The translations under genes were made by a program, and so were the position numbers. Below the pieces are notes generated by a model that searched no databases, was not told the origin of the DNA, and worked only from the letters and a program-made list of their open reading frames with translations. Shown here one piece after another: positions 7,758 through 63,497 of a stretch of 64,000 nucleotides of DNA (position 1 is its first letter; the number at the start of each line of letters is the position of its first letter). This DNA comes from a virus, in the IMG/VR virus record IMGVR_UViG_3300042691_016049, positions 4,538 through 68,537 of that record; one strand, given 5' to 3'.

Positions 7758-8482
7758 ATCAATCCGCGCTTCTTGGCCTCGTCCAATTCTTCCTGCATCC
7801 ATTGCTGGGCATACCAGACTTCGGCGTCCCAAGGTAGTGGTCTCATGCGGTCAACCCCGAAAGATAGCCTTCCGTAGTTGTTGGGGCTGTTCTCTTCCAG
7901 TTTAACAAACTTGTCCTCTGGCAGCATGTCCTTGTCATGTGGTAGGAATAGATAGCCGCGCAAGAAATCCAGAATGAAACTATGGCGGATAAGGAAGGTT
8001 GATTGGGCGCAACTCATCCAAGGTGCAGCGTCCATCTTTGCCCCGAATACCATGCCCTTGTCACCGAGATCCTGATACAGGCGTTCTGGAACAGAACCGA
8101 ACCACAAGCAATCAGCTTCTTTATAAATGAAATCTCTTCCGCAGTTGTAGGCAATCATGGCCAAGGCACAGATCGACGCCGACCATCCGCATAGTCCCTC
8201 GCGACCCTCTTTAATAAGGTCTCCGACATGCCCTGCATTGTGATTACAGAGGATGTGATTGATTGCTGGAACATTCCTGACAGTTGAGATGATATGGTAA
8301 TCGTGGGTATATCTTTCGGTGTTCTCCCGCCAGATATCATAAAAAGACCGATCCCAATCAGATCGGTAGTGGTAGCCAGAACCAACAACGTAACTCATCT
8401 TTTGCGGTAGATAGATAGGGTGGGCTTTATCCAACGCGCCGTAGCAATAGATCTCAAATCCCGTGAGAACTCTTCCATCCAT
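7754..8482 (-). CDS. Putative GT-A-like glycosyltransferase (true start probably the ATG near 8398)
   Basis: 'FIYKEADCLWF' DxD-like motif after a beta strand; last gene of a GT/MTase cluster. Confidence 0.5.
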   Translation of the reverse strand: MDGRVLTGFEIYCYGALDKAHPIYLPQKMSYVVGSGYHYRSDWDRSFYDIWRENTERYTHDYHIISTVRNVPAINHILCNHNAGHVGDLIKEGREGLCGWSASICALAMIAYNCGRDFIYKEADCLWFGSVPERLYQDLGDKGMVFGAKMDAAPWMSCAQSTFLIRHSFILDFLRGYLFLPHDKDMLPEDKFVKLEENSPNNYGRLSFGVDRMRPLPWDAEVWYAQQWMQEELDEAKKRGLI

Positions 8483-8961
8483 TGATATCCCCAGAACTCA
8501 AAGATATCATTCCAATAGGATTGCGGCTGGCAATTAACATGATGGTGGCCCCCGTCACTCCATTGCGGTTCAGAGTAGGTCATGGCCACGATACTGGCAG
8601 AATTGAAGGTAGCCATGTAGTTGCTCACATACCTCTGTTCAACGTGTTCAACAAATTCACAAGACCAAGCAAGATCAAATGATCTATTGGGCCTATATGG
8701 GCCTTGGGTATAATCATGGATCATTATCCTGTCCTTGATCGGGCTATTTTCCAAAGCCTTGGTTGATCCCTCAATTCCGATTACATCCTTAACCCCACCT
8801 TCTCTAAACCACTTCATTGAGTGGGCCTCTCCACATCCTATATCGATCAGGCTTTTGGGATTGAAAGTATCAATCAGTTTTTGCCACACAATTGGATCAT
8901 AGGTATCAGGATCTCCTCCCTGAACAAAACCTCCGAGATGTCCGTCTTGTACGAGAATCAT
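8395..8961 (-). CDS. Class I SAM-dependent methyltransferase
   Basis: Motif I 'LIDIGCGEA', 'FDLAWSCEFVEHV' and 'GHHHVNCQ'. Confidence 0.85.
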   Translation of the reverse strand: MILVQDGHLGGFVQGGDPDTYDPIVWQKLIDTFNPKSLIDIGCGEAHSMKWFREGGVKDVIGIEGSTKALENSPIKDRIMIHDYTQGPYRPNRSFDLAWSCEFVEHVEQRYVSNYMATFNSASIVAMTYSEPQWSDGGHHHVNCQPQSYWNDIFEFWGYQWMEEFSRDLRSIATARWIKPTLSIYRKR

Positions 8962-9467
8962 TTAATTGCCTCCATAATAATAGTTTCAATCTTGTTGTTG
9001 TGATCTCCGATAACTTTGCCATGACCCTCCAGTTCGCTGAAGTCGCAGCCATATATCTTGTCAGGGTCAAACCCCGCAGCAAACAAACAGGCATCAAGGA
9101 TTGATTCGTTCCACGCTGAGAGATGGCCATGATCCAGCAAGATAGAACGGACTGCCCCACGCTTTGTTCCGTCTCCGAATCCAGATTGTCCGTGCCATTT
9201 GAGGTAGGCTCCGTCTGCCAGATCGTAGATCTTAGACGCGCTAGGAACCGCCACTCGCAATATTCCCTCTGGTTTCAAGACTCGCAGGGCTTCCGCAAAA
9301 AACCGCACAGCATCAGGTGTTGTGGTGTGTTCGACGCAGTGTTCGATAAAAATAAAATCAATTGAATTGCCATCATAAGGAAGTGGTTTGGTTATATCCA
9401 AATCCATATCGTGATTCTCCCAACCATCCAGAATGTTTCCTCCGCAGCCTAAATTTAGTTTTCTCAT
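8958..9467 (-). CDS. Class I SAM-dependent methyltransferase (Methyltransf_11-like)
   Basis: 'KLNLGCGGNILDGWENHD', 'EHCVEH' and 'RVLKPEGILRVAVP'. Confidence 0.85.
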   Translation of the reverse strand: MRKLNLGCGGNILDGWENHDMDLDITKPLPYDGNSIDFIFIEHCVEHTTTPDAVRFFAEALRVLKPEGILRVAVPSASKIYDLADGAYLKWHGQSGFGDGTKRGAVRSILLDHGHLSAWNESILDACLFAAGFDPDKIYGCDFSELEGHGKVIGDHNNKIETIIMEAIK

Positions 9468-10777
9468 GTCAGTAGCATTTTAAATATTCTTTCATTCCAT
9501 TTTGAGGCTGGACGATCCATGGAATCTGTCCAGCTTGATGGGTGGTCTTCATGGTAAAGAATTTTTTCATTCGGGATTTCGGCAGGATAGCGGTCTTCGA
9601 TCAGGTTGTCCATCGTGGAAACCCAACCGAATTGTCGCCTAATCCAAGCGGCTACAGCCAAATCAAACCAAGGAGAAGCCACGGCACAGTCAGGGAAATT
9701 ATAGATTCGGTCTGCCAACCAGTCCCAACGAAAGGCGAATAGCTCCCTGCCTATGTGGGCGGGATCTCGCCTCACCCCGACAGCCCCGAACCTACGGCAA
9801 TGTTCGACTACCTTATGGAGGTTGATGATTTGAACATCGTCATTAGTCCAGACAATGATGTCCCGATGTCTGGTGAACTTCAAAGCCTTGGCCAGCATCT
9901 CCTTCAACATAGGTAGCGGACGCCGATCCCCGATATTATTGGCAGTCCGATGAATATTCTCTGCTGTGAGCATATGGTCGAAGTGGGATTTTTGGTTCTT
10001 AAAAGCCTCTCTGTGGCGTTTTTCCTGCCCGAATCGATCCACAATCGCCCAGACTTCGCCTATTGGAACCAGTGTTTTCTCAACCTCGTCACAGATCTGA
10101 TCCACGTTGTAGTCATGATATCGGAAGGTGGAGGTAGCGGTAACTGGAGGTGGACTGCCCCGCCATCCGTCATTAATTAAGGCAATCGTTGGACACTTGG
10201 CGGCATTAGCCAACCACAGGTGAAGGGTATCGATAGTGACCAGACAGGAGGCCGCATCTAAAACACCTAATAAATCAAATGGCTTTTCTGCTTGGATGGT
10301 GGACAGGTCTACGATCTTGTATTTGGGGAATCTTGCTTTGAGTCCGCGAATCAAATGCGCCCCGTGCAAGAGCGGAGAGCTTATCCCATGGGTGGCCACG
10401 GCAATGAATGGGCCGTCAGGAATTAACCTCGCTTCTCTCTGGAAATCACGCCGATCAAAGACATAGGGATGTTTGCGCCACTGATCCCGAAATCCTCCCA
10501 AACGATAGCTTTCTAAGGCATAATTCTTTTCCTGTTTGGTTTCTTTGGGATGCATGAAGACCTGTGCAACCCGCAGATCTGGCAATCCTTGGCAAAGCCC
10601 GATGCAATGCTGTAACTCTACAGGGTCTCCGCTATACTTCTTAGTCTGGCAGTAGCTTGTCCCATCAAAGATCGAAGAGTATTTCTCCGATGTTACAAAG
10701 GTAGTTCCCTTGTTGGCATAAGCCACGGGCAAGAGATTAATATGGTCTCCGAGTCTTCCAAGATTCAGGATGGTCAT
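9464..10777 (-). CDS. GT9 (heptosyltransferase-like) glycosyltransferase fused to a second GT-A-like domain
   Basis: N-terminal 'RLGDHINLLP', 'LVTIDTLHLWLANAAKCPTIAL', and C-terminal 'IIVWTNDDV'. Confidence 0.7.
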   Translation of the reverse strand: MTILNLGRLGDHINLLPVAYANKGTTFVTSEKYSSIFDGTSYCQTKKYSGDPVELQHCIGLCQGLPDLRVAQVFMHPKETKQEKNYALESYRLGGFRDQWRKHPYVFDRRDFQREARLIPDGPFIAVATHGISSPLLHGAHLIRGLKARFPKYKIVDLSTIQAEKPFDLLGVLDAASCLVTIDTLHLWLANAAKCPTIALINDGWRGSPPPVTATSTFRYHDYNVDQICDEVEKTLVPIGEVWAIVDRFGQEKRHREAFKNQKSHFDHMLTAENIHRTANNIGDRRPLPMLKEMLAKALKFTRHRDIIVWTNDDVQIINLHKVVEHCRRFGAVGVRRDPAHIGRELFAFRWDWLADRIYNFPDCAVASPWFDLAVAAWIRRQFGWVSTMDNLIEDRYPAEIPNEKILYHEDHPSSWTDSMDRPASKWNERIFKMLLT

Positions 10778-12354
10778 AGCTTTTTAAGCGTATCCAGAAG
10801 GGGCAACAGGTCAACCATGGAGGTGCGGCGTTTGATCTCGGTTTCCAACATGGACTTGTATATACTATGTATATCCAGACCAGCTATATCCTCACAGGAT
10901 ATGCCGCTAACCGCCGCTTCAACTGACCCATCCAACTGTGAAATGACTTTTGCTATGGACGATAGATTACCCGCCTTATAGTCCGAGTCCATGATGGTTT
11001 TGATGTCTTCGTCCGACAACAAATTCCAATTATAATTTGATGCGATGTCCTTACCGCACAATAAAAGATGGGCTACCAATTGTTTCCAAGCCTCGCCCTT
11101 CTGTTCTCCGTAGCGGGTTTCGGTGGGCAGGGCTATGTGTCCTCCTCCCATTGCCGCCTGTTTCTTTAACTGGGAAGGCTTGATGCCGAGCAGCTTCGCA
11201 CACCGATTGGCCAATTCGTCCCGCTCAATCCCATCTTCCAAGACAGACAGGGCTTGCCCGACCTTACCCATTGCAATCTGTTTATCCTCAATTGAATTTT
11301 TATCCAGTGATTCTGCCAATGCTTCTGGGTAGATCTTGGCATTTGAGATCAGACTCGCAATGTCTCCGCCCGAAACCAAGAAGGAATCGGGATCTCCATC
11401 TGCCAGCATAACAGCCCTAACCCTGACACCAAGGCTTGCCAGCCCCGCAAATGCCTTAAATGACGCCTCTCGCCCCGCTTTATCCCCGTCGAACACCAAG
11501 ACAGCCTCTTTGCACAGGCGACGAATGATGGCCCCATGAGTGGCGGTAAATCCCGTTCCAAGTGGAGCAACGGCATTGGTAATACCGCTCAAGTGGCATC
11601 TGATAGCATCAATCTGCCCCTCAACAATGATCACTTGCCCCGAATCGATGATGGATCGTTTGGCTTTGTCCAGTCCGTAGAGAAGCTTTCCTTTGTGAAA
11701 TAGCGGGGATTCGGGGGAGTTAAGATACTTGGCAGGATGGTTATCAATGGTGCGTCCGCTGAATCCAACCAGAGTCCCCGCCTCATCCGCTATCCCGAAC
11801 ATAATACGATTGGAAAAACGCAGCGTCCCATTATCGTAGGTTAACCCCGACAGGGTATGATGATTGGCACTACCAGACAGGGCATAGCTCTTTGGCGCGA
11901 ATCCGATCTTCCATTCCTCGCAGATCTCTTTATTGAATCCACGTTCCTTGAGAATCTTTCGAGCTTCAGCCCCTTCCTTAGTTAAAAGCAAACTGAAAAA
12001 TTGTTGGTTAGCCTTATAGACAACAGATACCAAGCCCCTTCGTAGCTTATCGGCCTCACTCTCCTGTTCCTCTATGGCTATCCCCGCTTTGGCTCCAAGT
12101 TTGCGGACAGCTTCGGGGAAGTTGATCTTGTCCATTTCCATGACAAAGCGGAAGACCGACCCTCCAGCCCCGCATCCAAAACATTTATAGTTTCCCTTGT
12201 CATCATTGATAAAGAATGATGGAGTCTTCTCCCGATGGAATGGACAGAGCGCAACGAATCGTCCGCCCCTCTTTTTTACAGGGAAGTAATCCCCTGCTAC
12301 TTCAGAGAGACGGACGTTTGCCGCTATCGAAGCAATGGTCGTTTCAGAGATCAA
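10774..12354 (-). CDS. dnaG: DnaG-type DNA primase (CHC2 zinc finger + TOPRIM)
   Basis: 'CPFHREKTPSF..CFGCG', 'KYLNSPE', 'VEGQID', 'FDGDKAG' and 'DPD'. Confidence 0.95.
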   Translation of the reverse strand: MISETTIASIAANVRLSEVAGDYFPVKKRGGRFVALCPFHREKTPSFFINDDKGNYKCFGCGAGGSVFRFVMEMDKINFPEAVRKLGAKAGIAIEEQESEADKLRRGLVSVVYKANQQFFSLLLTKEGAEARKILKERGFNKEICEEWKIGFAPKSYALSGSANHHTLSGLTYDNGTLRFSNRIMFGIADEAGTLVGFSGRTIDNHPAKYLNSPESPLFHKGKLLYGLDKAKRSIIDSGQVIIVEGQIDAIRCHLSGITNAVAPLGTGFTATHGAIIRRLCKEAVLVFDGDKAGREASFKAFAGLASLGVRVRAVMLADGDPDSFLVSGGDIASLISNAKIYPEALAESLDKNSIEDKQIAMGKVGQALSVLEDGIERDELANRCAKLLGIKPSQLKKQAAMGGGHIALPTETRYGEQKGEAWKQLVAHLLLCGKDIASNYNWNLLSDEDIKTIMDSDYKAGNLSSIAKVISQLDGSVEAAVSGISCEDIAGLDIHSIYKSMLETEIKRRTSMVDLLPLLDTLKKL

Positions 12355-14191: not shown

Positions 14192-14461
14192 TCATGCGGT
14201 TCTCCAGAATCGTAGCTTTTTCTTTCCGCCCTCTGTCACCATGCGCGTAGGGTAACGCCTTCCGTTGCGGCGTCCCTCTTTTGAGGCAATAGATCTAAGA
14301 AAATTCCAATCTGTTTCTAATCCAGTGTCAGGCCAAGCAAATGATTCCCCCACGTTTAGCTTGGAAAGCATAAACGGGAGAGGGTGGACAAGCGGCCCTC
14401 TCTCCCCCTTGCGGGGGAGGAGGACTTTGTCATCTATGGTGATGGTATAGGTGCGCTTCAC
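14192..14461 (-). CDS. Small DNA-binding-like protein
   Basis: 'PF..L.VGESF...R.WR' pattern common in small phage proteins; GTG start overlaps the upstream stop. Confidence 0.55.
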   Translation of the reverse strand: MKRTYTITIDDKVLLPRKGERGPLVHPLPFMLSKLNVGESFAWPDTGLETDWNFLRSIASKEGRRNGRRYPTRMVTEGGKKKLRFWRTA

Positions 14462-14700
14462 CGATTGCTCCAGAAGTGACCAGATAGCGCATCCGCCGCG
14501 CACTTATCACGGCATGATTCGCGGACATCTTCGTAGTTGGATTCTTTGAACCCGCGAGCCTTGGCAATAGTGGCAAGCGCAAATTCAACGTCATCATCAT
14601 CCGCCATGGGATGAGTGAGGCGAAGCAATGCATCCATCATATCGGGAGATGCATCGATCATATGTTGAGTAATCTTTCTGTCAGTGTGTAGCGGTATCAT
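14458..14700 (-). CDS. Hypothetical protein
   Basis: 'IDASPDMMDAL...IAKARG' pattern typical of small phage early proteins. Confidence 0.6.
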   Translation of the reverse strand: MIPLHTDRKITQHMIDASPDMMDALLRLTHPMADDDDVEFALATIAKARGFKESNYEDVRESCRDKCAADALSGHFWSNR

Positions 14701-15766: not shown

Positions 15767-16807
15767 CTAGTTGGCAAGAGCCGCTTGCCTGACCGCTTCC
15801 TGACCACGGGAGAACATGGTCACCCGATCAGGGCCAGCGAGCATGGCGATGAAGTTGCGCTTATGCTCCGCCGCTGAACCAAGTTGCGAGCGGTAAACCC
15901 GCGAGGCAAGGTTAGCTTTGCGCCCCGTGCCATTGCCGCTTGTCCAGTATTCTGTCGCGCCATTGGCGAGGTCATAGAGGTTGCGCCCCTTGTTCCCAAT
16001 GCCATTGGCGAACAGGTCAGCAATTTCCCGTGCCGCATTCATCGAACGGGTGGCGAGTTTGTTATCTTTCGCGTCTGTTGTCATGCAGAAATATCCCGCA
16101 GCCATTGCAAGCGCATCATTCGCATCGCAGGCGTGGTCAGCAAGATATTCCATGACTTTGACAAGCTCCACGCGCCCCTTGAGGATAGCGTTCAGGAGGT
16201 CACCGAGACCTTCAAGCGCGAATTCAGCGTTTTTTGTATGGTAAACTTTGAACTTGTTTTCCGCCGCATTGCGCGACCACTGAAAAGTGTTCATGCAAAC
16301 GATACGGATAGCAGAGTCGAAAGACTCCATTGCGATTGTCCCGTCATGCGATGTTACAAAATTCAAATTTGCTTTGAATTGGTCACCATTAATGACGAGG
16401 TCGGAGTTTCCAATGTCGCAAGAGATGGAAAACTTTTTTCCACGCTCCAATGTGCAGACCGAAGTCACCTTGCAGTCGAGATCCCGCAAGGATTTCTGCA
16501 TGACATTCCAAATTTCCCGATTGCTGATGACTTTGTAACCCGCCTTGGGAATGTGAAGCGGAACCAAGGCATCCCGCCCCGAAAGATCAGGGCGAACTTT
16601 GCGGTGATCCGCCACAAGAACTTTGTAGTCTTCCAAGGTTGCGGTTTCCCCGTCCACCTGAACGAAGGCGGGGCTTTCGATGATATCGAACAGCAAAGGA
16701 GAGACTTCCGTGTCTCCGATTGCTGAAACGTGTTGGGCTAATCCATGCCATTCGGTTCCCTCGATGGAGAGGACAATGTCATGGGGCTGTTCGATTTTGT
16801 GACTCAT
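15767..16807 (-). CDS. DUF932-family protein
   Basis: 'WHGL', 'YKVISN', 'TSHDGT', 'IRIVCMNT', 'HTKN' and 'NGATEY' motifs. Confidence 0.85.
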   Translation of the reverse strand: MSHKIEQPHDIVLSIEGTEWHGLAQHVSAIGDTEVSPLLFDIIESPAFVQVDGETATLEDYKVLVADHRKVRPDLSGRDALVPLHIPKAGYKVISNREIWNVMQKSLRDLDCKVTSVCTLERGKKFSISCDIGNSDLVINGDQFKANLNFVTSHDGTIAMESFDSAIRIVCMNTFQWSRNAAENKFKVYHTKNAEFALEGLGDLLNAILKGRVELVKVMEYLADHACDANDALAMAAGYFCMTTDAKDNKLATRSMNAAREIADLFANGIGNKGRNLYDLANGATEYWTSGNGTGRKANLASRVYRSQLGSAAEHKRNFIAMLAGPDRVTMFSRGQEAVRQAALAN

Positions 16808-16898
16808 ATGTGTGGTTTTTTCTATGTGTGGTTTTTTGGTTTTTCTCATTCCTCATCTTGTCACCCTATCGGGGCAAGGTTCGGTCTGATGAAAGTGA

Positions 16899-16926
16899 AA
16901 GTATCAGTGGGGAAAACTTTGTCAAC
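16899..16926 (-). promoter_or_regulatory. Sigma70-like early promoter
   Basis: TTGACA-16-TACTTT with a TG extension and an upstream A-tract. Confidence 0.65.
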
Positions 16927-17103
16927 TGGTTTTTTTAAAAAAAGATCAGGAAATTTTTGGGGGGAGAATTTGCCCCTTGTCACCTCGTTTTTCGGGGGTG
17001 TCATCATAGCGGGGCGGGAAAGAAAATCGTTTTGCGGGGCGTTTAAAGCGTGGAAATCGGACGGGACGGGGCGGAGGATCGGACTCCGCGCACCTTGTCA
17101 CCT

Positions 17104-17355
17104 TCAGAGGTTGCCAAATGTTTTCGGGGCATTCAGCCAATCCCACCAATTGCGGAAATTGGCAAAGGCGGGGCGTCCCCGTCTGTTATATTCTTCTAAC
17201 AGGTTGCAAACTGATAGCAGCCTGTCCAATATGGGAAGATCACTTGCGGGGAGTCTCTCCTCTAATTCCCTGAAGAGTCGCGAGGACATATTGTCCCCCC
17301 GTCCCCATATGCCATTGATTACCAATCTTGCCTCTTTTTCTGTTAGCGGTTCCAT
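17104..17355 (-). CDS. Hypothetical early protein
   Basis: ORF directly follows the upstream gene. Confidence 0.5.
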   Translation of the reverse strand: MEPLTEKEARLVINGIWGRGDNMSSRLFRELEERLPASDLPILDRLLSVCNLLEEYNRRGRPAFANFRNWWDWLNAPKTFGNL

Positions 17356-25367: not shown

Positions 25368-25526
25368 TCTTCTTCGACATCGGTTTCCTCAACTTGTTCA
25401 AACAACATTCTGATAGGATTGTCGCAAAAGCCTTCTTCTTGTTCTGGGAATGGCATCAGAACGCCCGTGTCATCGTAGGCGACTTTTAGATCAGCATCGA
25501 ATTGGCTCTGTGTCATTTGCCCTATA

Positions 25527-26958: not shown

Positions 26959-27288
26959 TCATTTGATGATTCCTTCTTGGCGGGCAATGGCCTCAATCTG
27001 GCTCACATACTCGCGGGTACAATTGAATACTTCGGCAACGGCGGTGAAGTTGGTTTCGGGGTTGTTCATAATGAAACCCAGAATCTTGAACGCCCTTCCC
27101 CCGTTGGACAGACGCCTCTTGGTGGTCTTCTTGCGCCTCGCCCGAATGCCAGTCCGCTTCAACGCCGAAGCCATGGCATGGTAGCTTGATCCGTGTTTTA
27201 CGGCCAGTTCACCAATGGTGATTTCGGGGTTTTCCTGAATTTCAGTAGGTAGAGTAGATGTGTTGATCATATAATTATGTATTGACAT
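26959..27288 (-). CDS. HTH DNA-binding protein (sigma region-4-like C-terminus)
   Basis: 'TIGELAVKHG' and 'FTAVAEVFNCTREYVSQIE'. Confidence 0.7.
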   Translation of the reverse strand: MSIHNYMINTSTLPTEIQENPEITIGELAVKHGSSYHAMASALKRTGIRARRKKTTKRRLSNGGRAFKILGFIMNNPETNFTAVAEVFNCTREYVSQIEAIARQEGIIK

Positions 27289-28433: not shown

Positions 28434-28712
28434 ATGAAAAAACTACTACTACTGGCATTAGTCACTAGCGTTCAGGCCCAAGATGGTTCGTTTAATGGAA
28501 CCATCTATGATTTGGATTCGGGGAGGATACAGGTCATAAGTGGGTCTGTGGATATTAAGCCAAAAGAAGACACATACTTGGAAACGCTTCGCCGCATCAA
28601 TGCGGAGTTGGCCGAATCAAACGCCCGTATTAGTGCGGAGATTGCCGCAAGTAACCAACTTTCTGAGTTGCAAGAGCAGACCCGCCTTCTTCGCAAAATT
28701 GCCGACCAATGA
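28434..28712 (+). CDS. Secreted protein with Sec signal peptide
   Basis: MKKLLLLALVTSVQA|QD, then a coiled coil. Confidence 0.65.
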   Translation: MKKLLLLALVTSVQAQDGSFNGTIYDLDSGRIQVISGSVDIKPKEDTYLETLRRINAELAESNARISAEIAASNQLSELQEQTRLLRKIADQ

Positions 28713-30346
28713 GCAACTATCTGAACGTCAATATCCCCACCTTCTTTGCTTTCGTAGACGAGGGGTTTTTCTACGATCTGGAGCCAGAGGTGTCTCGCTC
28801 AAGACAATTGGTAGAAGTCTTTGCTTTTACTTCTATTCCCCAACGTTGCGGGATGTTCAGCGTGATGACCGAATACGGAAGCCAGCATGCCAGAGTCCCG
28901 ATCCATTACCTCCATACCGATGAAACTGGAGGCACATTTTACCCGCTGGACTGGATACAACTCTGGGACTCCATGAGCTACTATTGCTCAGTCAATATCT
29001 TGGATTACTGCAAAAACAGGGCGGCAAACATCATGCTTAAAAACAAAAGCTTTGAGGAAGCCAAGTATATGTTCACGCTAGATTGGTGTTTGGGGCCGCA
29101 ATATACATCTGGATACGGCGAGATGGCGGCTGGTCACAAGTGCTTTGGCGAGGACACAATGATTCTTTGCAAAGATGGGCTTTACCCAATTAAAGAAGTT
29201 GAGGTTGGGGATTATGTTTGGACACACAAAGGTAGATGGAAGCGTGTGGCCGCTATTCATAAAAGAGTTGGCGATTCGGTTTCCGTGAAAGCTGCTGGAA
29301 TTGCCAACTTTATAACAACAAAAGAACATAAAATTTTAACAACACTAGGATGGGAGCAAGTTCAAAATGCAGGATGCGTGACTCTTGCATCGCCGCAATT
29401 ACCTCTTAGTCGCCCCATTGATTGTCCTCTAGAAATCAATGGAGATTTCATGCGGTTTCTTGGGAGGTGGGTTGGCGATGGTTGTATTAATTACTCGCAA
29501 AAATCGGGAAGACCAAAGGGAGAGTTGGTCAACAGAATCATTGTTTCTTGTAATGCTCAAGAGGAAGAATCTCTTGAAAAAGACATTGATTTGTTTTTCA
29601 AAACAAAAACGCGCCAACAGGTTTCTGGAAACTGCTATAATTATTACATGGAAAACAAACAATTGGCTGAATGGATTTCAGACAATTTTGGTAGATACTC
29701 TTGGGCAAAAAGAATTCCAAACTGGATTTATTCTTTAGACAAAAGCCTGATTGAGGATTTCATCTATGGATATTTTCTTTCTGACGGTTCTATAACAAAA
29801 GACACCAATGAAAGATCAATAACCAGTGTTTCTAAAAAACTTGCTATTGGAGTAGCGATGCTTCTTCGGGTTTGTGGATATTATCCCAAAATCTATTATC
29901 GCGACAGAGATAACGATTTATGCAAAATTCACAAAACCACCTACAAGTGTAAGCCGAGATATTCCGTAAGGTGGATGATTGACAAAAAACAAAATACCTT
30001 CACAAAATATGCTGATGGTAGAATTACTTCTAAGATAAAATCTTTAGAAGATTTTGGCACCGCCCTTCTTTATGATCTTTCAGTTGAGGACGATCACTCG
30101 TACATTGCAGATGGCGTGATAGCGCACAACTGTGGTCATGTATTTGCGGGTAATGGGCAATACTTCATCCAGCCCAACAATCGCGTGTTATGGATGGATG
30201 GAGGATCGTTTATTGCCAAGAAGTTTCCGCAAAAGCCCGACTGGAAAGTATTCAGCCAAGAGTTTAGTTGTGAACACACTGGGAGCCGTTGGGTCAGTGA
30301 AAGCGAGGAGGAGCTATGGTTTTACGACTTCAAAGAGCAGGGATAG
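28709..30346 (+). CDS. Conserved phage hypothetical protein (~215 aa extein) containing an intein
   Basis: Extein 'YLNVNIP..QLWD..YMFTLDW..GHK|CGHV..GQYFIQPNNRV'. Confidence 0.85.
   Translation: MSNYLNVNIPTFFAFVDEGFFYDLEPEVSRSRQLVEVFAFTSIPQRCGMFSVMTEYGSQHARVPIHYLHTDETGGTFYPLDWIQLWDSMSYYCSVNILDYCKNRAANIMLKNKSFEEAKYMFTLDWCLGPQYTSGYGEMAAGHKCFGEDTMILCKDGLYPIKEVEVGDYVWTHKGRWKRVAAIHKRVGDSVSVKAAGIANFITTKEHKILTTLGWEQVQNAGCVTLASPQLPLSRPIDCPLEINGDFMRFLGRWVGDGCINYSQKSGRPKGELVNRIIVSCNAQEEESLEKDIDLFFKTKTRQQVSGNCYNYYMENKQLAEWISDNFGRYSWAKRIPNWIYSLDKSLIEDFIYGYFLSDGSITKDTNERSITSVSKKLAIGVAMLLRVCGYYPKIYYRDRDNDLCKIHKTTYKCKPRYSVRWMIDKKQNTFTKYADGRITSKIKSLEDFGTALLYDLSVEDDHSYIADGVIAHNCGHVFAGNGQYFIQPNNRVLWMDGGSFIAKKFPQKPDWKVFSQEFSCEHTGSRWVSESEEELWFYDFKEQG
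29141..30130 (+). mobile_element. Intein (330 aa) with LAGLIDADG homing endonuclease
   Basis: N-terminal CFGEDTMI, block B 'TKEHKI', 'FLGRWVGDG', 'FIYGYFLSDG', C-terminal 'YDLSVEDDHSYIADGVIAHN', +1 Cys. Confidence 0.93.
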
Positions 30347-57339: not shown

Positions 57340-57575
57340 GGTATTGTTCCTAGTGCCGATCCAGATCCTATTGAAATATTAAGTGCCGAGATGTAATTTG
57401 TTGTCTGATCCATTTGCCTTGATGTCAGGTCAAATAGCTTCTCTGAAAAAACAAGCCTAGATCCTTGTGGCCCGCTCGGAGCATATGGACTGTTTCCCCG
57501 AATAAACGCTTGAGGGTCTTTTGTTCCAAGGCCAACAAATGCTGGACTAGCTTTATATTGTGGCAACCCATCCAT
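57336..57575 (-). CDS. Hypothetical protein
   Basis: Operon position. Confidence 0.5.
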   Translation of the reverse strand: MDGLPQYKASPAFVGLGTKDPQAFIRGNSPYAPSGPQGSRLVFSEKLFDLTSRQMDQTTNYISALNISIGSGSALGTIP

Positions 57576-57583
57576 TATATCAT

Positions 57584-59731
57584 TTAGACGTATTCGCTGG
57601 TTATGTGTGCAATAACAGCCGTGATTCTTACCAATCCATATTTATAAGATTGTGAATCTATGCTGACAATGAAGTTGCCAGTTGGAAACTGTGGATAATT
57701 TGTTGCATTAGCCGTCTTTGGATAAAAATCTATTTCGTTGCTTGTGATGTCGGCAAACGCACTGACGTTGAACGGAGGTTCAACGGGAATCATTACACCG
57801 CTGGGCAATGTGTTGTATCCAAGTGATGGAGCGTTTCCAAATCTTATAAGGCTATAAGTGTACCAATTTTCATTGGTTGGCGAGCCAGTTCCAAATATCC
57901 TGTTGAACGTAAGGCTTGCGTGGAGTGTAGGCGGAATATTGATGATGGAGGTTTGAAGAGATGTATCATAGCTTCCAGAAGAAGAAAGCCCGCTTCCACT
58001 TGATGACGATGTCTGTGATCTTTGTTGTCTATGAGATATGTTGGCCCCATTAAGCGTGATTGTTACTGGTTCTGGCTTGATTGATGGCCATAGTGACGCT
58101 CCAGTTTTGGCCATGATTTGGGCCATCGTGGAATTATTCCTGTCCAAAAAGAAAACATAACGTGTTGCGGGAACCGTTCCTGTATACCCGTTGATAATAT
58201 TTGGCCTTACGGAATATGTAAGGCTTGCAGAAGCTTGTGCCGAAGCATTGAAGTCGTTTCCAACGCCCTGTCCAGCGCCAGTAGATTTGCTGTATGTTTT
58301 GATTATATCAACTGATACAAGCCGATCTGGAAGATTGACGTTTACAAAATCCGCAATTTGCCATTCTTGATTCAGTGCCGCATCCCGAAATTCTGAAATA
58401 TCAAAATTCCTTTTTATGGAATGGAATACATCTCTTGGCTGGATCTCTGTCCTCGGATCTCCTACTCCAGTATTTGGTTCTACAAATTGCTGCGTGAACG
58501 GGAATACAATATCCAGTTCTTCATCATAGCTTTGTCCAGTAAGCTCTGGCGGCGAAGATAGCTCAACCTCTCTGGTAACAAACTTTCCGTCACCCAACGC
58601 CTCTTTTTCGGCTGTCACCGTTCCATAAGCTGGAGATATATTTACAGAAGCGCCATAGCGTTCTGTGACTTGGGCAATGCCACCGCCCAGTTCTGTGGTA
58701 TAGGCTTCTCCTTGGACAACACCTTCAGCCGCTGGATCGCGTTCTTCAGTTCTTACCCTTTTGACAAACTCTGTTACTTGTTGTTCTGATTTGGAAATTT
58801 CGCTTCCCGCCAAAGTAATTGAGCTTCCAACATTTCCAGCAACGGATCGCTCAACAACGGTGGACGGAACATTGGCCCTAAACTTTTGGGGAGTAACATC
58901 TGGTTTCTCAAGGCTTAGTGATTTGCCCTCAAAAACACTGGGCGAGTCTACAATGCGCTCAACAAGCGATTCTGCGTCTTCGCGAGAAGCCTCAACCGTT
59001 CTTGTTGCCGTTGGGTTTGGCGCGATGTAGTCCAAGGCCGCTTTGCGTTGCGTTGTGACCGTGACAAGCTGTCCTTGTTCGTTTGTTACATTACCAATAA
59101 GTTGCGGCCCATCTACGGAATATGTCTGAACAATCTTAAATAAAAGAAATTCGTTGTATGGTTCGTAAGAAGTTTGGGTTATAACCCCATCAACATTCTC
59201 AAGGCTTCCAACCTCTTCGCCAGTTGGAACAAACAATTGACGGCGTTCTTGGACGGCTCCGCGAGAAGCATCGTAAAAATCCCGATCCCGAATCGGAAAC
59301 AGAGAATTACCATCATCGTCAGTCTTGATCGACCAAGATTCCTCAATCTCGGTATAGACAATGGCTGAACCCTCGCGGGCTTCGTAGGTAACACGTTTGT
59401 CAGCGGCAAGGCTGGCTACCTGTCCTTCGTTTTTTACAGAGCGGCGTCTGCCTTGAATCGGGCCTAGATCATCATCATAGCGAGTAAACGGAACCCAAGG
59501 AGACGGGAGAATTTCGTAGACATGAGTGACAACTTGGTCTCCACTAGTTGGTTGCGAACCTGTAAAGACATGGTTGGGATAGCGTTTGCTATCGGGGTGT
59601 GGGCTAAGATCTTCTGGAACCCTGTATCCAGCGGTTCTGGGATCTAGGCGAATCGCAACTATTGGAAAGTCACGATCATTAGCCGCATAGGAAGCGGTGT
59701 AAAACTTGTTGATAGGCGGGTAGTCGGCCAT
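57584..59731 (-). CDS. Putative structural protein with beta-rich internal repeats
   Basis: 715 aa, Thr/Ser/Val-rich; promoter TTGCCG-17-TAAGTT upstream. Confidence 0.6.
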   Translation of the reverse strand: MADYPPINKFYTASYAANDRDFPIVAIRLDPRTAGYRVPEDLSPHPDSKRYPNHVFTGSQPTSGDQVVTHVYEILPSPWVPFTRYDDDLGPIQGRRRSVKNEGQVASLAADKRVTYEAREGSAIVYTEIEESWSIKTDDDGNSLFPIRDRDFYDASRGAVQERRQLFVPTGEEVGSLENVDGVITQTSYEPYNEFLLFKIVQTYSVDGPQLIGNVTNEQGQLVTVTTQRKAALDYIAPNPTATRTVEASREDAESLVERIVDSPSVFEGKSLSLEKPDVTPQKFRANVPSTVVERSVAGNVGSSITLAGSEISKSEQQVTEFVKRVRTEERDPAAEGVVQGEAYTTELGGGIAQVTERYGASVNISPAYGTVTAEKEALGDGKFVTREVELSSPPELTGQSYDEELDIVFPFTQQFVEPNTGVGDPRTEIQPRDVFHSIKRNFDISEFRDAALNQEWQIADFVNVNLPDRLVSVDIIKTYSKSTGAGQGVGNDFNASAQASASLTYSVRPNIINGYTGTVPATRYVFFLDRNNSTMAQIMAKTGASLWPSIKPEPVTITLNGANISHRQQRSQTSSSSGSGLSSSGSYDTSLQTSIINIPPTLHASLTFNRIFGTGSPTNENWYTYSLIRFGNAPSLGYNTLPSGVMIPVEPPFNVSAFADITSNEIDFYPKTANATNYPQFPTGNFIVSIDSQSYKYGLVRITAVIAHITSEYV

Positions 59732-59819
59732 GGAGAATCCCGAAAACTTACTCTAAAAGATAGTTGGCGGCAAGATGATTTTCCGCTTGCATTGGTTGAT
59801 GGGCATGATAGATTCCAGC

Positions 59820-59895
59820 TTGGAAGGCGCTCGTCTTCCTGTTTTCATGTGTGTGGGGCGGGGTCGGGCTAAAAACTCGGCCCCGCTTTTTTTTT
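59820..59895 (+). ncRNA. Candidate trans-acting sRNA
   Basis: Promoter TTGCAT-16-TAGATT, 5' hairpin, unpaired TGTTTTCATGTGTGTGG, intrinsic terminator with T9. Confidence 0.6.
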
Positions 59896-59942
59896 GAACG
59901 CTTGACAAGATCGGTTGTCGGATATAACGAACATCTACCTAT

Positions 59943-60566
59943 ATGGCATATCAATCCAACCAACCCAAAGCACCAGTCCTCTCACACTACACGCTCGCGA
60001 AAAATGGGCCCAAACTTGTAGCCGTCAAATCACCCCCCAAGTGGGTAAAGAACAATTCGTTGTGCGTTATCGAATTGATTGTGGATGGCGCTGCCCATGT
60101 ATATTTTACTGAGAATAAAGACATTGCGTCGAAGTTTCAGCAATATGTTGGCAAGTCTGTAGTGCTAATTGCCTCTGGTAATTCCAAGCAAAAGACCGAC
60201 TCCATGGAAATTCAGCCTGCTGGGGTTCCAGCTTCCAGCCTGCCAGCGGCCAAAAGTGCCCCGCAATCATCCCAAAAGCCCGCAGAAAAGGTTATTACTG
60301 CTCCAGCCCATCCAGACAAGGAAGCCAAGCAATTCCTCTGTCAGGCGGCAAATCTGATGCGTCTATGTGTCAAGAAGGCCAATGATATTGCGGTGGAATT
60401 GAATCTTCCAGAGCAGCATCGTCAGGGAATTGCAACCACACTTTTCATCAATGGTGATAAGCAGGGCTATATTTCCTCCATGCCAATCACGGCATATACT
60501 CCCGAACAACTTGGCTTCGGGGCGAGCAAGGCCGAATCCCTGAATAATCCACAGGCAAATGACTAA
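59943..60566 (+). CDS. Hypothetical protein (possible SSB/recombination function)
   Basis: Beta-rich N-domain, Pro/Ala linker, 'ATTLFI' helix; TTGACA promoter at 59902. Confidence 0.55.
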   Translation: MAYQSNQPKAPVLSHYTLAKNGPKLVAVKSPPKWVKNNSLCVIELIVDGAAHVYFTENKDIASKFQQYVGKSVVLIASGNSKQKTDSMEIQPAGVPASSLPAAKSAPQSSQKPAEKVITAPAHPDKEAKQFLCQAANLMRLCVKKANDIAVELNLPEQHRQGIATTLFINGDKQGYISSMPITAYTPEQLGFGASKAESLNNPQAND

Positions 60567-60822
60567 TGAACGAGAGCGCGGCATCGAAATTCTGTCGCAT
60601 GATAAGGGATCATTCCTCGTTCAAAGTCGGTCTAATCGCGAAGACTACTACTTGGTGGAATTCACTACCGATGAAGCGGGAGACGTCACAGGATGTTCCT
60701 GCACTTGTTCAGGCTATCACTTCCGCAAAGAGTGCTTCCACATCCGATACCTCTGTAAACTCTTGGGCGTCGAAACGCCGAAGTCAACAAACAACAACCA
60801 ACTAGAAATAGCAGTAGTATGA
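60559..60822 (+). CDS. SWIM zinc-finger protein
   Basis: 'YLV..CSCTC..F..EC.HI'. Confidence 0.75.
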   Translation: MTNERERGIEILSHDKGSFLVQSRSNREDYYLVEFTTDEAGDVTGCSCTCSGYHFRKECFHIRYLCKLLGVETPKSTNNNQLEIAVV

Positions 60823-60977
60823 AGAAATCCAAAGGAGAGAAAAAAATCAGCAAGGTCATGCGTGAGTATGGCAAGGGCAAACTCAAAAGCAGTTCTGGCC
60901 AGAAGGTCAAGAATCCCAAACAGGCCATCGCAATCGCACTCAGCGAAGCTGGCAAGAGCAAGAAGAAGGGCAAGTAA
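60819..60977 (+). CDS. DUF6496-like small basic protein
   Basis: KISKVMREYGKGKLKSSSGQKVKNPKQAIAIALSEA. Confidence 0.75.
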   Translation: MKKSKGEKKISKVMREYGKGKLKSSSGQKVKNPKQAIAIALSEAGKSKKKGK

Positions 60978-60989
60978 CACTTTGGCAAC

Positions 60990-61059
60990 GTCAGCCAGCA
61001 TTGCGGGTCGCAACCGTGGGCTACAATGGCGTGACAGCAGGAGAGACTGCACATTTTTT
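60990..61059 (+). ncRNA. Candidate structured intergenic RNA motif
   Basis: GTCAGCCA..TGGCGTGAC stem, then GCAG-GAGAGA-CTGC hairpin and a T-run. Confidence 0.5.
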
Positions 61060-61092
61060 GAACGAATCAACCATACACCTGTCAAAACACAT

Positions 61093-61305
61093 ATGAGCAA
61101 CATCTGCCCAAAATGCGGATCAGTAATGGTCGAAAAGCCGCCAGAGCAAATCTATTGCAGCTATCCTCCGCAGTGGGACTCCGTCATGTGGTGCGGATGC
61201 GGCTACACCGAAGATCGCGGAATGGTCTACGGGAAAACACCGCAAGAATACCTCCGCGAGACATGGGAAAATATTAACAAACTGAATAAAGTATATGGGC
61301 AATAA
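61093..61305 (+). CDS. Small zinc-ribbon protein
   Basis: CPKCG..YPPQ..CGCG. Confidence 0.6.
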   Translation: MSNICPKCGSVMVEKPPEQIYCSYPPQWDSVMWCGCGYTEDRGMVYGKTPQEYLRETWENINKLNKVYGQ

Positions 61306-61403
61306 ATCAAAATATTTTGAACTAGAGATAATATTCACTATGCTATTTTGGCTTATTGTGCTTCTCTTATTGAAGCAGCTTCCGACTCTAGAAAACCAAC
61401 AAA

Positions 61404-61697
61404 ATGACACTAGATCAAATCGACAGATTCATGCGCCTTCGGGAGCGGACGTTCGCGTTCATCCGCGAATACCTTATGAAGGAGCCTCATTGCAAAATAT
61501 ATGAGGGCGAGTTCAGCATTGTCTTCCCAAACTATTTCGGGAATATCCCTTGGATAATCAAGCTTTCGTGCTATGTTTTGGGGCCAGCCCGTCACTATGA
61601 TTGGGGCGGTGATTCGTTTGAAGAGTGCTTGGACAAGGCCGAAAAAGACATAGACCAATGGATCAAAGAAGAGGAGGAATGGCTTCGTGAGGGTTAG
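61404..61697 (+). CDS. Hypothetical protein
   Basis: ATG after an A/C-rich leader. Confidence 0.55.
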   Translation: MTLDQIDRFMRLRERTFAFIREYLMKEPHCKIYEGEFSIVFPNYFGNIPWIIKLSCYVLGPARHYDWGGDSFEECLDKAEKDIDQWIKEEEEWLREG

Positions 61698-62553
61698 TAA
61701 TATTTTTGGATTGCCCCAGCCGTTCGTTGACTTGGTGAGCGAGTCTTCGTATTCGGCGGGGGAGGCTGATATCACTACGACAAGTCTCTTCCAGCCCCCG
61801 AAAATTCGGGAGTTAATGAAGCGGCACGGGGATACGATTACAGAAGATGCTTCGGATCGCGTGTGGACAATGCTTGGAACAGCCAACCATTACGTTCTGG
61901 AGCAGATCGCCAAGAGGAATCCCGAACGCTATCTAACCGAAGTGAGGCTCTATCTCACGGTGGACGGCGTGAAGCTCGGAGGCCAGATCGACCTCTATGA
62001 CAAGCAGGAGCAAGTCCTCTATGACTACAAGGTCAGCGGTGTCTACAAGGCAATGAGTGATGATCGTTTTGAGTGGACGGCACAAGCGGCGGTCAACCGA
62101 CTGCTACTAGAACACAATGGCTATCCAGTCAAGCGTTCTGCCATCATTCTCGTAATGAAAGATTTTAAGTTGCGGGATGCGAAGATCAAGGCCGACTACC
62201 CGAAGTGTCCTGTGGTAGAAATTAAGCTGGATGCATGGAAGCCCGAAGAAACATTTGCATATATCAAAAGTCGGATTAACCTCCATCAACAAGCTAAAGA
62301 CCTTACTGATGACCAGATCCCGATCTGCACCGAATCCGAACGCTGGCGTGTCCCAGACCTCTATGCCGTCCTCCCGAAAAAAAGAGCAAAGCGAGCGGTC
62401 AACAATGGGACTTACGAAGACAGACTACAAGCTGAAGCTCATGCCAAGCGTATCGGAGGTATTGTTGAGGAACGGCTTGGGGAAGATAAACGTTGCGCGG
62501 ACTACTGCCGTGTTAGAGCCTATTGCAACTACGGAAGAAACCTAAAAAAATAA
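61687..62553 (+). CDS. PD-(D/E)xK exonuclease (Cas4-like)
   Basis: 'GTANH..E..GQIDLY..DYK..Q' and C-terminal Cys cluster 'C..RCADYC..YC'. Confidence 0.85.
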   Translation: MRVSNIFGLPQPFVDLVSESSYSAGEADITTTSLFQPPKIRELMKRHGDTITEDASDRVWTMLGTANHYVLEQIAKRNPERYLTEVRLYLTVDGVKLGGQIDLYDKQEQVLYDYKVSGVYKAMSDDRFEWTAQAAVNRLLLEHNGYPVKRSAIILVMKDFKLRDAKIKADYPKCPVVEIKLDAWKPEETFAYIKSRINLHQQAKDLTDDQIPICTESERWRVPDLYAVLPKKRAKRAVNNGTYEDRLQAEAHAKRIGGIVEERLGEDKRCADYCRVRAYCNYGRNLKK

Positions 62554-62558
62554 TTACT

Positions 62559-62852
62559 ATGAGCAAATCAAATAGAACACAATCAACGCTAAAACGTCTT
62601 GGACTTTCTGGCGTCAACAAGCCAAAGCGCACACCGTCCCATCCAACCAAGAGCCATGTTGTATTGGCTAAAGAGGGTGACAAGACCAAGGTCATTCGTT
62701 TTGGCCAACAGGGAGTTAGCGGTTCTCCCAAGAAAGAAGGAGAGTCAGAGTCCTATCGCAAGCGCCGAGAATCATTCAAGGCTCGCCATGCTTCCAATAT
62801 TAAAAAGGGCAAAATGAGTGCGGCATATTGGGCGAACCGCGAGAAGTGGTAG
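62559..62852 (+). CDS. Small basic phage protein
   Basis: 'PTKSHVVLAK..IRFGQQG..RRESFKARH..SAAYWA..KW'. Confidence 0.7.
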   Translation: MSKSNRTQSTLKRLGLSGVNKPKRTPSHPTKSHVVLAKEGDKTKVIRFGQQGVSGSPKKEGESESYRKRRESFKARHASNIKKGKMSAAYWANREKW

Positions 62853-62872: not shown

Positions 62873-63058
62873 ATGAAAAAGAAATCCAAATCAACAGTCA
62901 ATGCTGCTGGCAACTATACAAAGCCAGCAATGCGTAAGCGCCTTTACCAAAAGATCAAGGCTGGAACCAAGGGCGGGGACAAAGGCGAATGGGGCGCGAG
63001 AAAGAGTCAGCTATTAGCTAGAGAATATAAAAAAGCTGGTGGAGGATACAAGGACTAA
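62873..63058 (+). CDS. DUF5872-like protein, N-part
   Basis: 'NYTKP.MR..G.KGG..GEW.ARK.QL..Y..GGGY'. Confidence 0.65.
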   Translation: MKKKSKSTVNAAGNYTKPAMRKRLYQKIKAGTKGGDKGEWGARKSQLLAREYKKAGGGYKD

Positions 63059-63497
63059 AAAATGCACAATGTGCAAAGAAACCAAACCGATTTCAAAATT
63101 CAGAAGTCGGGGTGGGGCAATGTCGCATTTAGTTAAAAGTCGCTGCAACTCCTGCCTCTACAAAGAGCATTTAAGGTGGACAAAAGAAAACCAAGACAGG
63201 GTCAGGGAATATCGACAAAGAGACAAGTGGACGATAGTAAAAAGATGCAAGAGGCACGGAATATCTCCACAAATTTTAATAGAAGCATACGAGGCGCAAA
63301 ACGGACTTTGTCCAATTTGTAAAAACCACATAGAGCTAATGGGAAGCGCAATTGATCATAACCACAATACTGGTGAATTTCGTGGCGTTCTGTGCAAAAA
63401 GTGCAATCGTGCCTTGGGTCTGTTTCACGATAGTCCCAATGTCTTGACAAGGGCAGCAAACTACCTAAAAGAGAAAGGAAGCTATTCAAATCTATGA
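63039..63497 (+). CDS. Endonuclease VII-family (homing-type) nuclease
   Basis: N-terminal CxxC..CxxC, then 'Q.G.CPIC..IDHNH.TG..RGVLC..CN..LG'. Confidence 0.85.
   Translation: MEDTRTKKCTMCKETKPISKFRSRGGAMSHLVKSRCNSCLYKEHLRWTKENQDRVREYRQRDKWTIVKRCKRHGISPQILIEAYEAQNGLCPICKNHIELMGSAIDHNHNTGEFRGVLCKKCNRALGLFHDSPNVLTRAANYLKEKGSYSNL

Follow-up and report, generated by a model that had tools for sequence, protein, structure and literature searches.

This study concerns a 64,000-nucleotide stretch of phage DNA (the window), which covers bases 4538-68537 of the IMG/VR record IMGVR_UViG_3300042691_016049, and in particular a small RNA (sRNA) element at 59787-59895 on its plus strand. Conservation and covariation in related phages indicate that this element is very probably a genuine, selected RNA gene. 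Judged from its sequence, it is stand-alone and non-coding and forms a new family of phage-encoded sRNAs, themselves a known kind of RNA. It is a clean, covariation-backed candidate with a defined promoter, ends and seed, kept in relatives whose neighboring protein is as little as ~50% identical. Bacteria and prophages are well known to carry regulatory sRNAs. To our knowledge, reports from lytic phages are few, and uncultured environmental phages have contributed almost none.

Anatomy, conservation and covariation of the RNA element

The element is housed in a 211-bp gap between a 715-aa gene on the minus strand and a plus-strand operon that begins at 59943. Its promoter (59787-59814) has the -35 box TTGCAT (59787-59792), a 16-nt spacer whose last bases, TG-A, supply an extended -10 (TG at 59806-59807), and the -10 box TAGATT (59809-59814). 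From the position of the -10 box, transcription is predicted to start 0-3 nt upstream of the 7-bp 5' hairpin GGAAGGC-GCUC-GUCUUCC (59822-59839), which is probably a stabilizer of the 5' end. Sequence reading and folding then place an unpaired 17-nt stretch, TGTTTTCATGTGTGTGG, at 59840-59856; this is the putative seed. Transcription would end at an intrinsic terminator (59858-59895) with an 11-bp G+C stem (59858-59868 and 59876-59886), a 7-nt loop and nine U residues (59887-59895). These parts, and a new promoter beyond them, were all found on direct reading of the sequence where the original prediction had located them.

The predicted fold has a minimum free energy (MFE) of -34.3 kcal/mol (z -2.89), and 3 of 200 shuffles fold equally well. 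The 17-mer seed is single-stranded in the centroid structure. One structure dominates, and no antiterminator alternative pairing was present in the predicted fold. A terminator scan gave a stem of 14 pairs (59855-59889) once G-U pairs were counted; when the terminator hairpin is read on the minus strand, no U run follows it. In the seed, UGUUUUCAUGUGUGUGG, 15 of the 17 positions are G or U. The window gave no Rfam match at the gathering score, and under a relaxed threshold (E <= 10) the best match within 59700-59960 had E=0.53. A tRNA search found none at the element.

Relatives were gathered from IMG/VR with the 207-aa protein encoded by the first gene of the plus-strand operon. This yielded 65 related loci with 48-96% identity, among which nine sequence clades were distinguished. 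A covariance model, trained on 19 close sequences, was used to search the window together with 53 non-duplicate loci (54 sources). A single plus-strand match was found in 52 of the 54, and the two loci that the model missed (L041 and L062) show the element by eye. The covariation alignment consists of 47 distinct rows; in this alignment, whose fitting to the model leans towards the structure of that model, standard pairs occupy 97.2% of the paired cells, as compared to 82.8% in shuffles. Double-sided changes were observed in 17 of the 18 pairs, and none of 500 shuffles reached any observed measure. Sliding the partner column by 1-3 positions lowered the pairing to 48-62%. Both stems contribute: double changes are found in 6 of 7 pairs of the 5' hairpin (93.3% of cells paired) and in 11 of 11 pairs of the terminator (99.4%). 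Separate MFE folds of 45 distinct sequences gave the same architecture from differing stem sequences, and the hairpin of L028 has an additional C-G pair inserted. A MAFFT-based RNAalifold analysis misaligned the distant clades and returned a poor consensus, and the covariance-model alignment was used in its place. G-U pairs are frequent, and on the opposite strand they would be A-C mismatches. They fit only an RNA read from the plus strand.

Segment identities were compared in 35 close relatives. They were 0.50 in the promoter spacer, 0.66 between the -10 box and the hairpin, 0.95 in the hairpin and 0.98 in the terminator. The unpaired stretch reached 0.99 (98.8%), the highest of all segments. 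The values for the neighboring gene were 0.69 at codon position 3 and 0.95 at positions 1 and 2. The 38 aligned promoter sequences, drawn from all clades, share an invariant TTGCA, and both TG and TA..TT reach a conservation of at least 90%. Even clades whose neighboring protein is just 48-66% identical retain one single-stranded core. An exact 23-mer spanning seed and terminator was found in 23 IMG/VR contigs, all inside the known family and none outside it.

The element is always upstream of and co-oriented with the 207-aa operon, and it behaves as a unit. In L027 and L055 it lies 0.7-1 kb upstream of the operon with an open reading frame (ORF) inserted between them, and in L005 and L015 the upstream flank has been replaced. 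The unit from promoter to terminator is intact in all four and thus survives insertions on either side. ORFs along the sRNA in relatives range from 0 to 87 aa on the plus strand, and those opposite it from 3 to 33 aa on the minus strand (one more minus-strand frame ran off the region read). No frame or length is conserved among relatives, and coding on either strand was rejected. Together with the covariation, these observations bear out the earlier claim of a stand-alone, non-coding RNA gene running from promoter to terminator.

Some observations weigh against this assignment. A simple promoter scan did not list TTGCAT-16-TAGATT; it missed this promoter because the -35 box equals TTGACA at just 3 of 6 positions. 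The 24 sequencing runs that contain the region are all DNA, labeled freshwater, wastewater or "fungus metagenome", with no RNA run among them. In clades B, C, D, H and I the 5' hairpin is weak or absent. Within a 3-kb region the scans counted 3 promoters vs. 3.3 in shuffles, which is not above shuffles, and 6 terminators vs. 2.9 (standard deviation 2.0), a mild excess. It is conservation and covariation in the relatives that place the element beyond chance, not single-sequence scans. Across the genome, the sRNA promoter is one of 2 intergenic sites that join a TTG-type -35, TGn and TAnnnT.

Seed variation, candidate targets and competing explanations

We favor, as a plausible but tentative explanation, a trans-acting sRNA that pairs with C/A-rich start regions and occludes the start codons of its putative targets, possibly host mRNAs. 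From the anatomy described above we infer its transcription, timing, pairing and targets as follows. An RNA of ~70-76 nt would be made by host RNA polymerase at the sigma-70-type extended -10 promoter and would end at the strong intrinsic terminator. Because the promoter is of the host type, the sRNA would be made early, probably at once on infection. The G/U-rich stretch between hairpin and terminator is centered on CAU and is the complement of a C/A-rich start region; it would pair in trans with starts like ...CACACAUG.... Where initiation does not use a Shine-Dalgarno (SD) sequence, such pairing would cover the start codon and block initiation. The phage genes had been described as SD-less, and this held up, with an SD-like 4-mer upstream of 12 of 65 starts vs. 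10 of 65 control windows. Since these genes carry no SD signal, the host probably initiates on unstructured A/C-rich leaders, and a start-codon-centered seed would be sensible as an initiation block. The physiological target would most likely be one or a few host mRNAs. The combination of SD-less genes and a CAU-centered seed could show how sRNAs repress translation when there is no SD to mask.

The seed had been proposed to pair with the start regions of early genes; in relatives it is conserved in part. The stretch is 98.8% identical in the close relatives, and an AUG-(UG)n core is universal, whereas the UUUUCAU half is limited to some clades. The sequence GUUUUCAUGUGUG is retained in four clades (A, E, G and I). 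The other five (B, C, D, F and H) differ in the 5' part of the seed, with for example CAUAUGUGUGUGUG, CAUAUGUUGUGUGUGUGG and ACAUGUGUGUGUG. The family-wide core is CAU/AUG followed by (UG)n, in which the length of the UG repeat changes in 2-nt steps. It follows that the segment matching AUGAAAA lies outside the conserved portion of the seed. A seed variant, UUAUCAUG in place of UUUUCAUG, is present in L009, L012 and G006 (L059), which belong to two separate clades. In G006 the variant seed pairs better with a conserved internal site, ...CGCGCAUGGUGAC..., which in the window is inside the ORF at 14192-14503.

Targets within the phage were sought by exact matching and by duplex energy. Outside the sRNA's own antisense strand, no exact complement in the genome is longer than 10 nt: there are two of 10 nt and a few of 9 nt. 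By our own arithmetic, ~1 10-mer and ~4.7 9-mers are expected by chance in 137 kb, so the observed matches are at chance level. When 209 start windows were paired with the seed and with 300 control seeds (CAU kept, flanks shuffled), the real seed did not stand out by the minimum (p=0.15), the top five (p=0.36) or the count (p=0.77). Start ATGs paired no better than internal ATGs in the window genome (83 vs. 812, p=0.76) or in 11 genomes pooled, each with its own seed (807 vs. 7613, p=0.999). UG repeats pair promiscuously through G-U, and the duplex energies therefore have little specificity. These results do not support generic silencing at the starts of early phage genes. The UUUUCAU part, which pairs with ATGAAAAC / AUGAAAA, is missing in clades C, D, F and H.

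A few signals lean weakly in the opposite direction. Among start-like ATGs, a liberal class, 13 of 368 reached -15 kcal/mol or lower vs. 29 of 1969 (p=0.01, with thresholds set post hoc), while the class showed no overall shift in energy (p=0.31). Start-like ATGs made up 11 of the 23 windows in the top 2%, vs. 7.3 +/- 1.7 in 45 controls, and 2 of the 45 controls were as high. Starts in the minus block pair slightly better than the others (32 vs. 51, p=0.01), as do starts behind the TTGAAC-type promoters described below (n=86, pooled z -0.29, p=0.01). The tail enrichment of strong duplexes at start-like ATGs is weak (p ~0.01-0.05).

The best candidate target inside the phage is the probable true start of the DUF932 gene on the minus strand, where CCACACAUAUG (16805-16815, ATG at 16807) pairs with CAUGUGUGUGG over 11 bp with one G-U. 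In an RNAduplex scan it is the best non-self duplex genome-wide (-20.6 kcal/mol), and close relatives share the site. G004 and G006, however, lack it, and G002 keeps an identical seed but has no DUF932 gene. The DUF932 cluster was top of 47 ortholog clusters (mean z -1.76), but this is not significant after correction. On these grounds DUF932 was rejected as a conserved target. Starts of the type CACA(U/C)AUG, such as those of DUF932 and of a small zinc-ribbon gene at 61093, are possible secondary targets. The motif CACA[CT]ATG has 18 non-sRNA occurrences in 11 genomes, not above uniform expectation, although by our reading ~10 of them are at gene starts.

Upstream of the DUF932 gene (16805-17110, minus strand) there is a strong promoter, TTGACA-N14-TG-A-TACTTT, at 16925-16898. 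The sequence GGTGACAAG occurs three times in this upstream region (17102, 16984 and 16865), and the leader contains the tandem AAAAAACCACACAUAG / AAAAAACCACACAUAUG. The annotated start of the longest DUF932 ORF (16849) is probably wrong, because homology begins at ATG 16807.

One alternative is that the exposed UG repeat serves as a decoy that titrates a single-strand-binding or RNA-binding protein of the host or the phage. The part conserved across clades is a low-complexity UG repeat of varying length. Such a pattern would be expected of a site bound by protein more than of a seed fitted to a single target, and the search of 11 phage genomes turned up no conserved complementary target. The protein of the adjacent gene also has a possible OB-like domain with weak fold matches. 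On the other side, the flanking CAU/AUG is conserved too, none of the results allows a UG-binding bacterial protein to be named, and the OB assignment rests on E >= 0.026. We regard a decoy as unlikely.

The original prediction was a generic anti-initiation sRNA that shuts off the phage's own minus-strand early genes (leader-AUGAAAAC), an RNA-based early-to-late switch. The six complementary motifs on which it relied are real and stand at the coordinates given for them. Each overlaps the ATG of a minus-strand ORF 58-70 codons long, whose first residues are MKT... in five cases and MNT... in the sixth. Many small minus-strand ORFs of this phage start with ATGAAAAC (MKT). The slight advantage of minus-block starts, the tail enrichment at start-like ATGs and the SD-less genes also fit this idea. 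However, matches of 9-10 nt occur at chance frequency, seeds with shuffled flanks pair equally well (the comparison with shuffled controls that the prediction itself had called for, p=0.15-0.77), and the pooled tests on 11 genomes show no excess over internal ATGs. The AUGAAAA-pairing UUUUCAU is absent in clades C, D, F and H, where the UG repeat is kept. Moreover, the sRNA promoter is among the best host-type promoters in the genome, so that the sRNA would be made together with, not after, the genes to be switched off. A generic early-gene shut-off is therefore unsupported, and we consider this switch improbable.

Equally improbable, in our view, is an extended form of the favored explanation, in which, in a host that initiates translation without SD sequences, an immediate-early sRNA would be a weapon of host takeover. 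It would cover start codons on a wide range of host mRNAs and, perhaps at a later stage, on early mRNAs of the phage itself. The conserved seed does mirror an ideal start region, with a C/A-rich leader, AUG and A-rich codons. If this were true, it would be the first sRNA family of an "anti-start-codon" type. It would also be the first family of conserved regulatory sRNAs to be described from uncultured lytic phages of the environment.

Phages encode anti-defense mimic RNAs, and the sRNA could be a mimic of a host clustered regularly interspaced short palindromic repeat (CRISPR), of an RNA antitoxin or of a host sRNA, in the last case acting as a sponge, and made immediately on infection. One sRNA that might be sponged in this way is the cyanobacterial Yfr1, which has a C/A-rich motif. 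The host-type promoter, and hence probably immediate expression, the strong conservation of sequence and not of structure alone, and the lack of a phage-internal target in our searches are consistent with this. The element is a single copy, not a repeat array, and has no similarity to any Rfam family, and an anti-defense role appears quite unlikely.

Just as unlikely is a cis-acting element, which could act on the downstream operon as its leader or attenuator, or could be no more than a promoter and a terminator that insulate or tune the divergent promoters. The constant position upstream of the co-oriented operon would fit, the U-tail overlaps the TTGAAC of the next promoter, and in L027 the tail is degenerate (TTTTCCTA), so that read-through is possible. 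Against this, all clades have a separately conserved promoter motif after the terminator, and L027 and L055 keep the sRNA despite a whole ORF before the operon. An insulator also would not need the unpaired stretch to be the most conserved segment (98.8%). The attenuator in particular was rejected on the single dominant fold, which offers no antiterminator alternative, the operon's own promoter and the ORF insertions in L027 and L055. A small protein, from the 40-aa plus-strand ORF at 59775-59897 or the 31-aa minus-strand ORF starting at CACACAUGAAAACA, is hardly credible, because, although both ORFs exist in the window and the minus-strand ATG has a C/A-rich context, 1-2-nt indels break the frames in relatives to the varied lengths given above, and substitutions keep base pairs, not codons.

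Neighboring genes, promoter classes and the phage family

Upstream, the palindrome GCAAG-N11-CTTGC (59770-59794) overlaps the -35 box of the sRNA promoter and has a conserved ATTTTCC stretch upstream. No second copy exists anywhere in the genome. In relatives, CAAG...CATTTTCC.CTTGCA is seen again; L005 and L015 have different sequence upstream and nonetheless retain the sRNA. The palindrome is possibly an operator or a pair of back-to-back -35 elements. On the minus strand, a conserved -10-like TTTTAGAGT is 12-13 nt from CTTGCC, upstream of the divergent 715-aa gene (57584-59731, minus), which has no family match and starts 55 nt from the sRNA -35 box. The palindrome region may be a regulatory site shared by both divergent promoters.

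Downstream, the promoter and leader of the plus-strand operon occupy 59894-59942, with TTGAAC-N16-TGTC (59894-59919) overlapping a TTGACA at 59901-59906. This TTGAAC-N16-TGTC is conserved across all clades, and the sRNA U-tail runs into its TTGAAC. The first gene of the operon encodes the conserved 207-aa protein (59943-60566, plus, ATG at 59943), which was our anchor for finding relatives. An AlphaFold2 model of this protein (mean predicted local distance difference test score 73) has an N-terminal beta-barrel and a disordered P/Q/A-rich linker of variable length, and the C-terminus is helical and nearly invariant (...CQAANLMRLCVKKANDI...HRQGIA...). Foldseek returned weak matches only, to SSB, RPA and other OB folds (best E 0.026). 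Nearby lie an exonuclease gene (61687-62553) and an EndoVII gene (63039-63497), and the modeled fold suggests that the 207-aa protein may be an SSB-like member of this recombination module.

The motif TTGAAC-N15-17-NGTC has 11 copies in the genome, where shuffles have ~1.5; counts in 11 related genomes, G001-G010 among them, range from 5 to 14. Its copies are at 59894-59919, 61058, 30892, 28234, 27748 and 54543 on the plus strand and at 25401, 24100, 22857, 13978 and 3041 on the minus strand. Most copies have an ATG-ORF within 35 nt downstream. One abuts the sRNA terminator in front of the 207-aa gene, and a further copy, seen in clades E and F, overlaps the spacer of the sRNA promoter. From these sequences the motif looks like a family-wide promoter class. 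It resembles promoters of extracytoplasmic function (ECF) sigma factors. A six-frame search of the phage found no Sigma70_r2 domain; a 109-aa ORF (26959-27288, minus) has sub-threshold helix-turn-helix and Sigma70_r4 matches. The transcription signals of the family that are exposed in this way, a few host-type promoters and the TTGAAC-N16-GTC class, should be useful for annotation.

A conserved promoter-leader cassette, TTGAACGAATCAACCACACACCTGTCAAA(A/G)CACA(T/C)ATG, is at 61058-61095 of the window and also ~1.1-1.6 kb downstream of the 207-aa gene in L009, L015, L024, L028, L030, L039, L056 and L063. The genes behind it differ in their N-termini (MSNICPKC, MITHTAKM, MNDILTKT, MITKSSWR and others). 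By its sequence the cassette looks like a portable expression module before variable cargo. Its CACA(U/C)AUG is complementary to the sRNA core.

The record of 68,537 bp has a 69-bp terminal overlap, which indicates a circular map of ~68.5 kb, and its G+C content is 47.8%. The family consists of uncultured freshwater phages with genomes of ~68 kb. Recognizable genes encode primase, DnaB helicase, dCMP deaminase, DUF932, large and small terminase, tail fiber, holin, CHAP endolysin, PD-(D/E)XK exonuclease and endonuclease VII. Among cultured phages, neither a DNA search with 57500-62600 nor tblastn searches with the terminase and the 207-aa protein found a match. Primase matches were only to distant phages of many hosts (<36% identity) and gave no host clue, and profile searches of genome contigs with the 207-aa protein and its alignment found nothing. 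In the ESM Atlas, the rank-2 cluster is mostly bacterial, with Cyanobacteriota commonest (score 0.92), a weak pointer that serves as a lead only.

Two further genes deserve mention. For a 2922-aa ORF at genome positions 3526-12294 (in the window, to 7757), a search of 2581 of its residues against PHROG and Pfam found no family. An N4-like idea, in which this giant ORF would be a virion RNA polymerase and the hairpin its promoter, was dropped on this ground and on the sigma-70-like promoter conservation. The 545-aa protein encoded at 28709-30346 has Hint, intein-splicing and LAGLIDADG matches, and its flanks match the PHROG "ferredoxin" and anaerobic ribonucleotide reductase families; its gene probably contains an intein.

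Comparison with known regulatory RNAs

Lambda OOP and P22 sar are RNAs of ~70-80 nt, each transcribed from a promoter of its own within a regulatory intergenic region and ended by an intrinsic terminator, and they overlap and fully complement a gene on the opposite strand. The sRNA described here differs from them in this last feature. It has no conserved gene or ORF opposite it, there is no minus-strand gene to its right that could read through it, and the 715-aa gene starts 55 nt outside the element, which sets it apart from cis-antisense RNAs. The P4 CI RNA arises by processing of an operon leader, and its pairing partners are repeats within that transcript. The phage sRNA is likewise a small RNA at the head of an early operon, but it ends at a terminator of its own, a separate promoter serves the operon, and no complementary repeats turned up downstream.

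Other known RNAs are the trans-acting sRNAs of phages and prophages, such as DicF, IpeX and the Pas sRNAs of prophages in pathogenic E. coli. Like these, the present sRNA is small, terminator-ended and a putative base-pairing RNA. DicF, IpeX and the Pas sRNAs are carried by temperate phages or prophages of enterobacteria, and their host targets are characterized. The phages that carry the present sRNA are uncultured, live in freshwater, are apparently of a lytic type and have SD-less genes, and the sRNA has no homology to curated families.

GcvB (Rfam RF00022), an sRNA of Enterobacteria and relatives, has target elements that are reportedly C/A-rich and located in or upstream of ribosome-binding sites, going by the title of Sharma 2007. 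The phage sRNA differs from GcvB in several respects. It has no Rfam match even at E <= 10, it is phage-encoded, and it is ~75 nt vs. ~200 nt in length. The conserved CAU in its seed would also cover the start codon itself. The G/U-rich region R1 of GcvB pairs with most of its targets (PMC9299463). Like R1, the phage sRNA presents a single-stranded G/U-rich stretch that is flanked by hairpins in a terminator-ended RNA. GcvB R1 is the closest functional precedent for the phage sRNA, and the resemblance is functional only.

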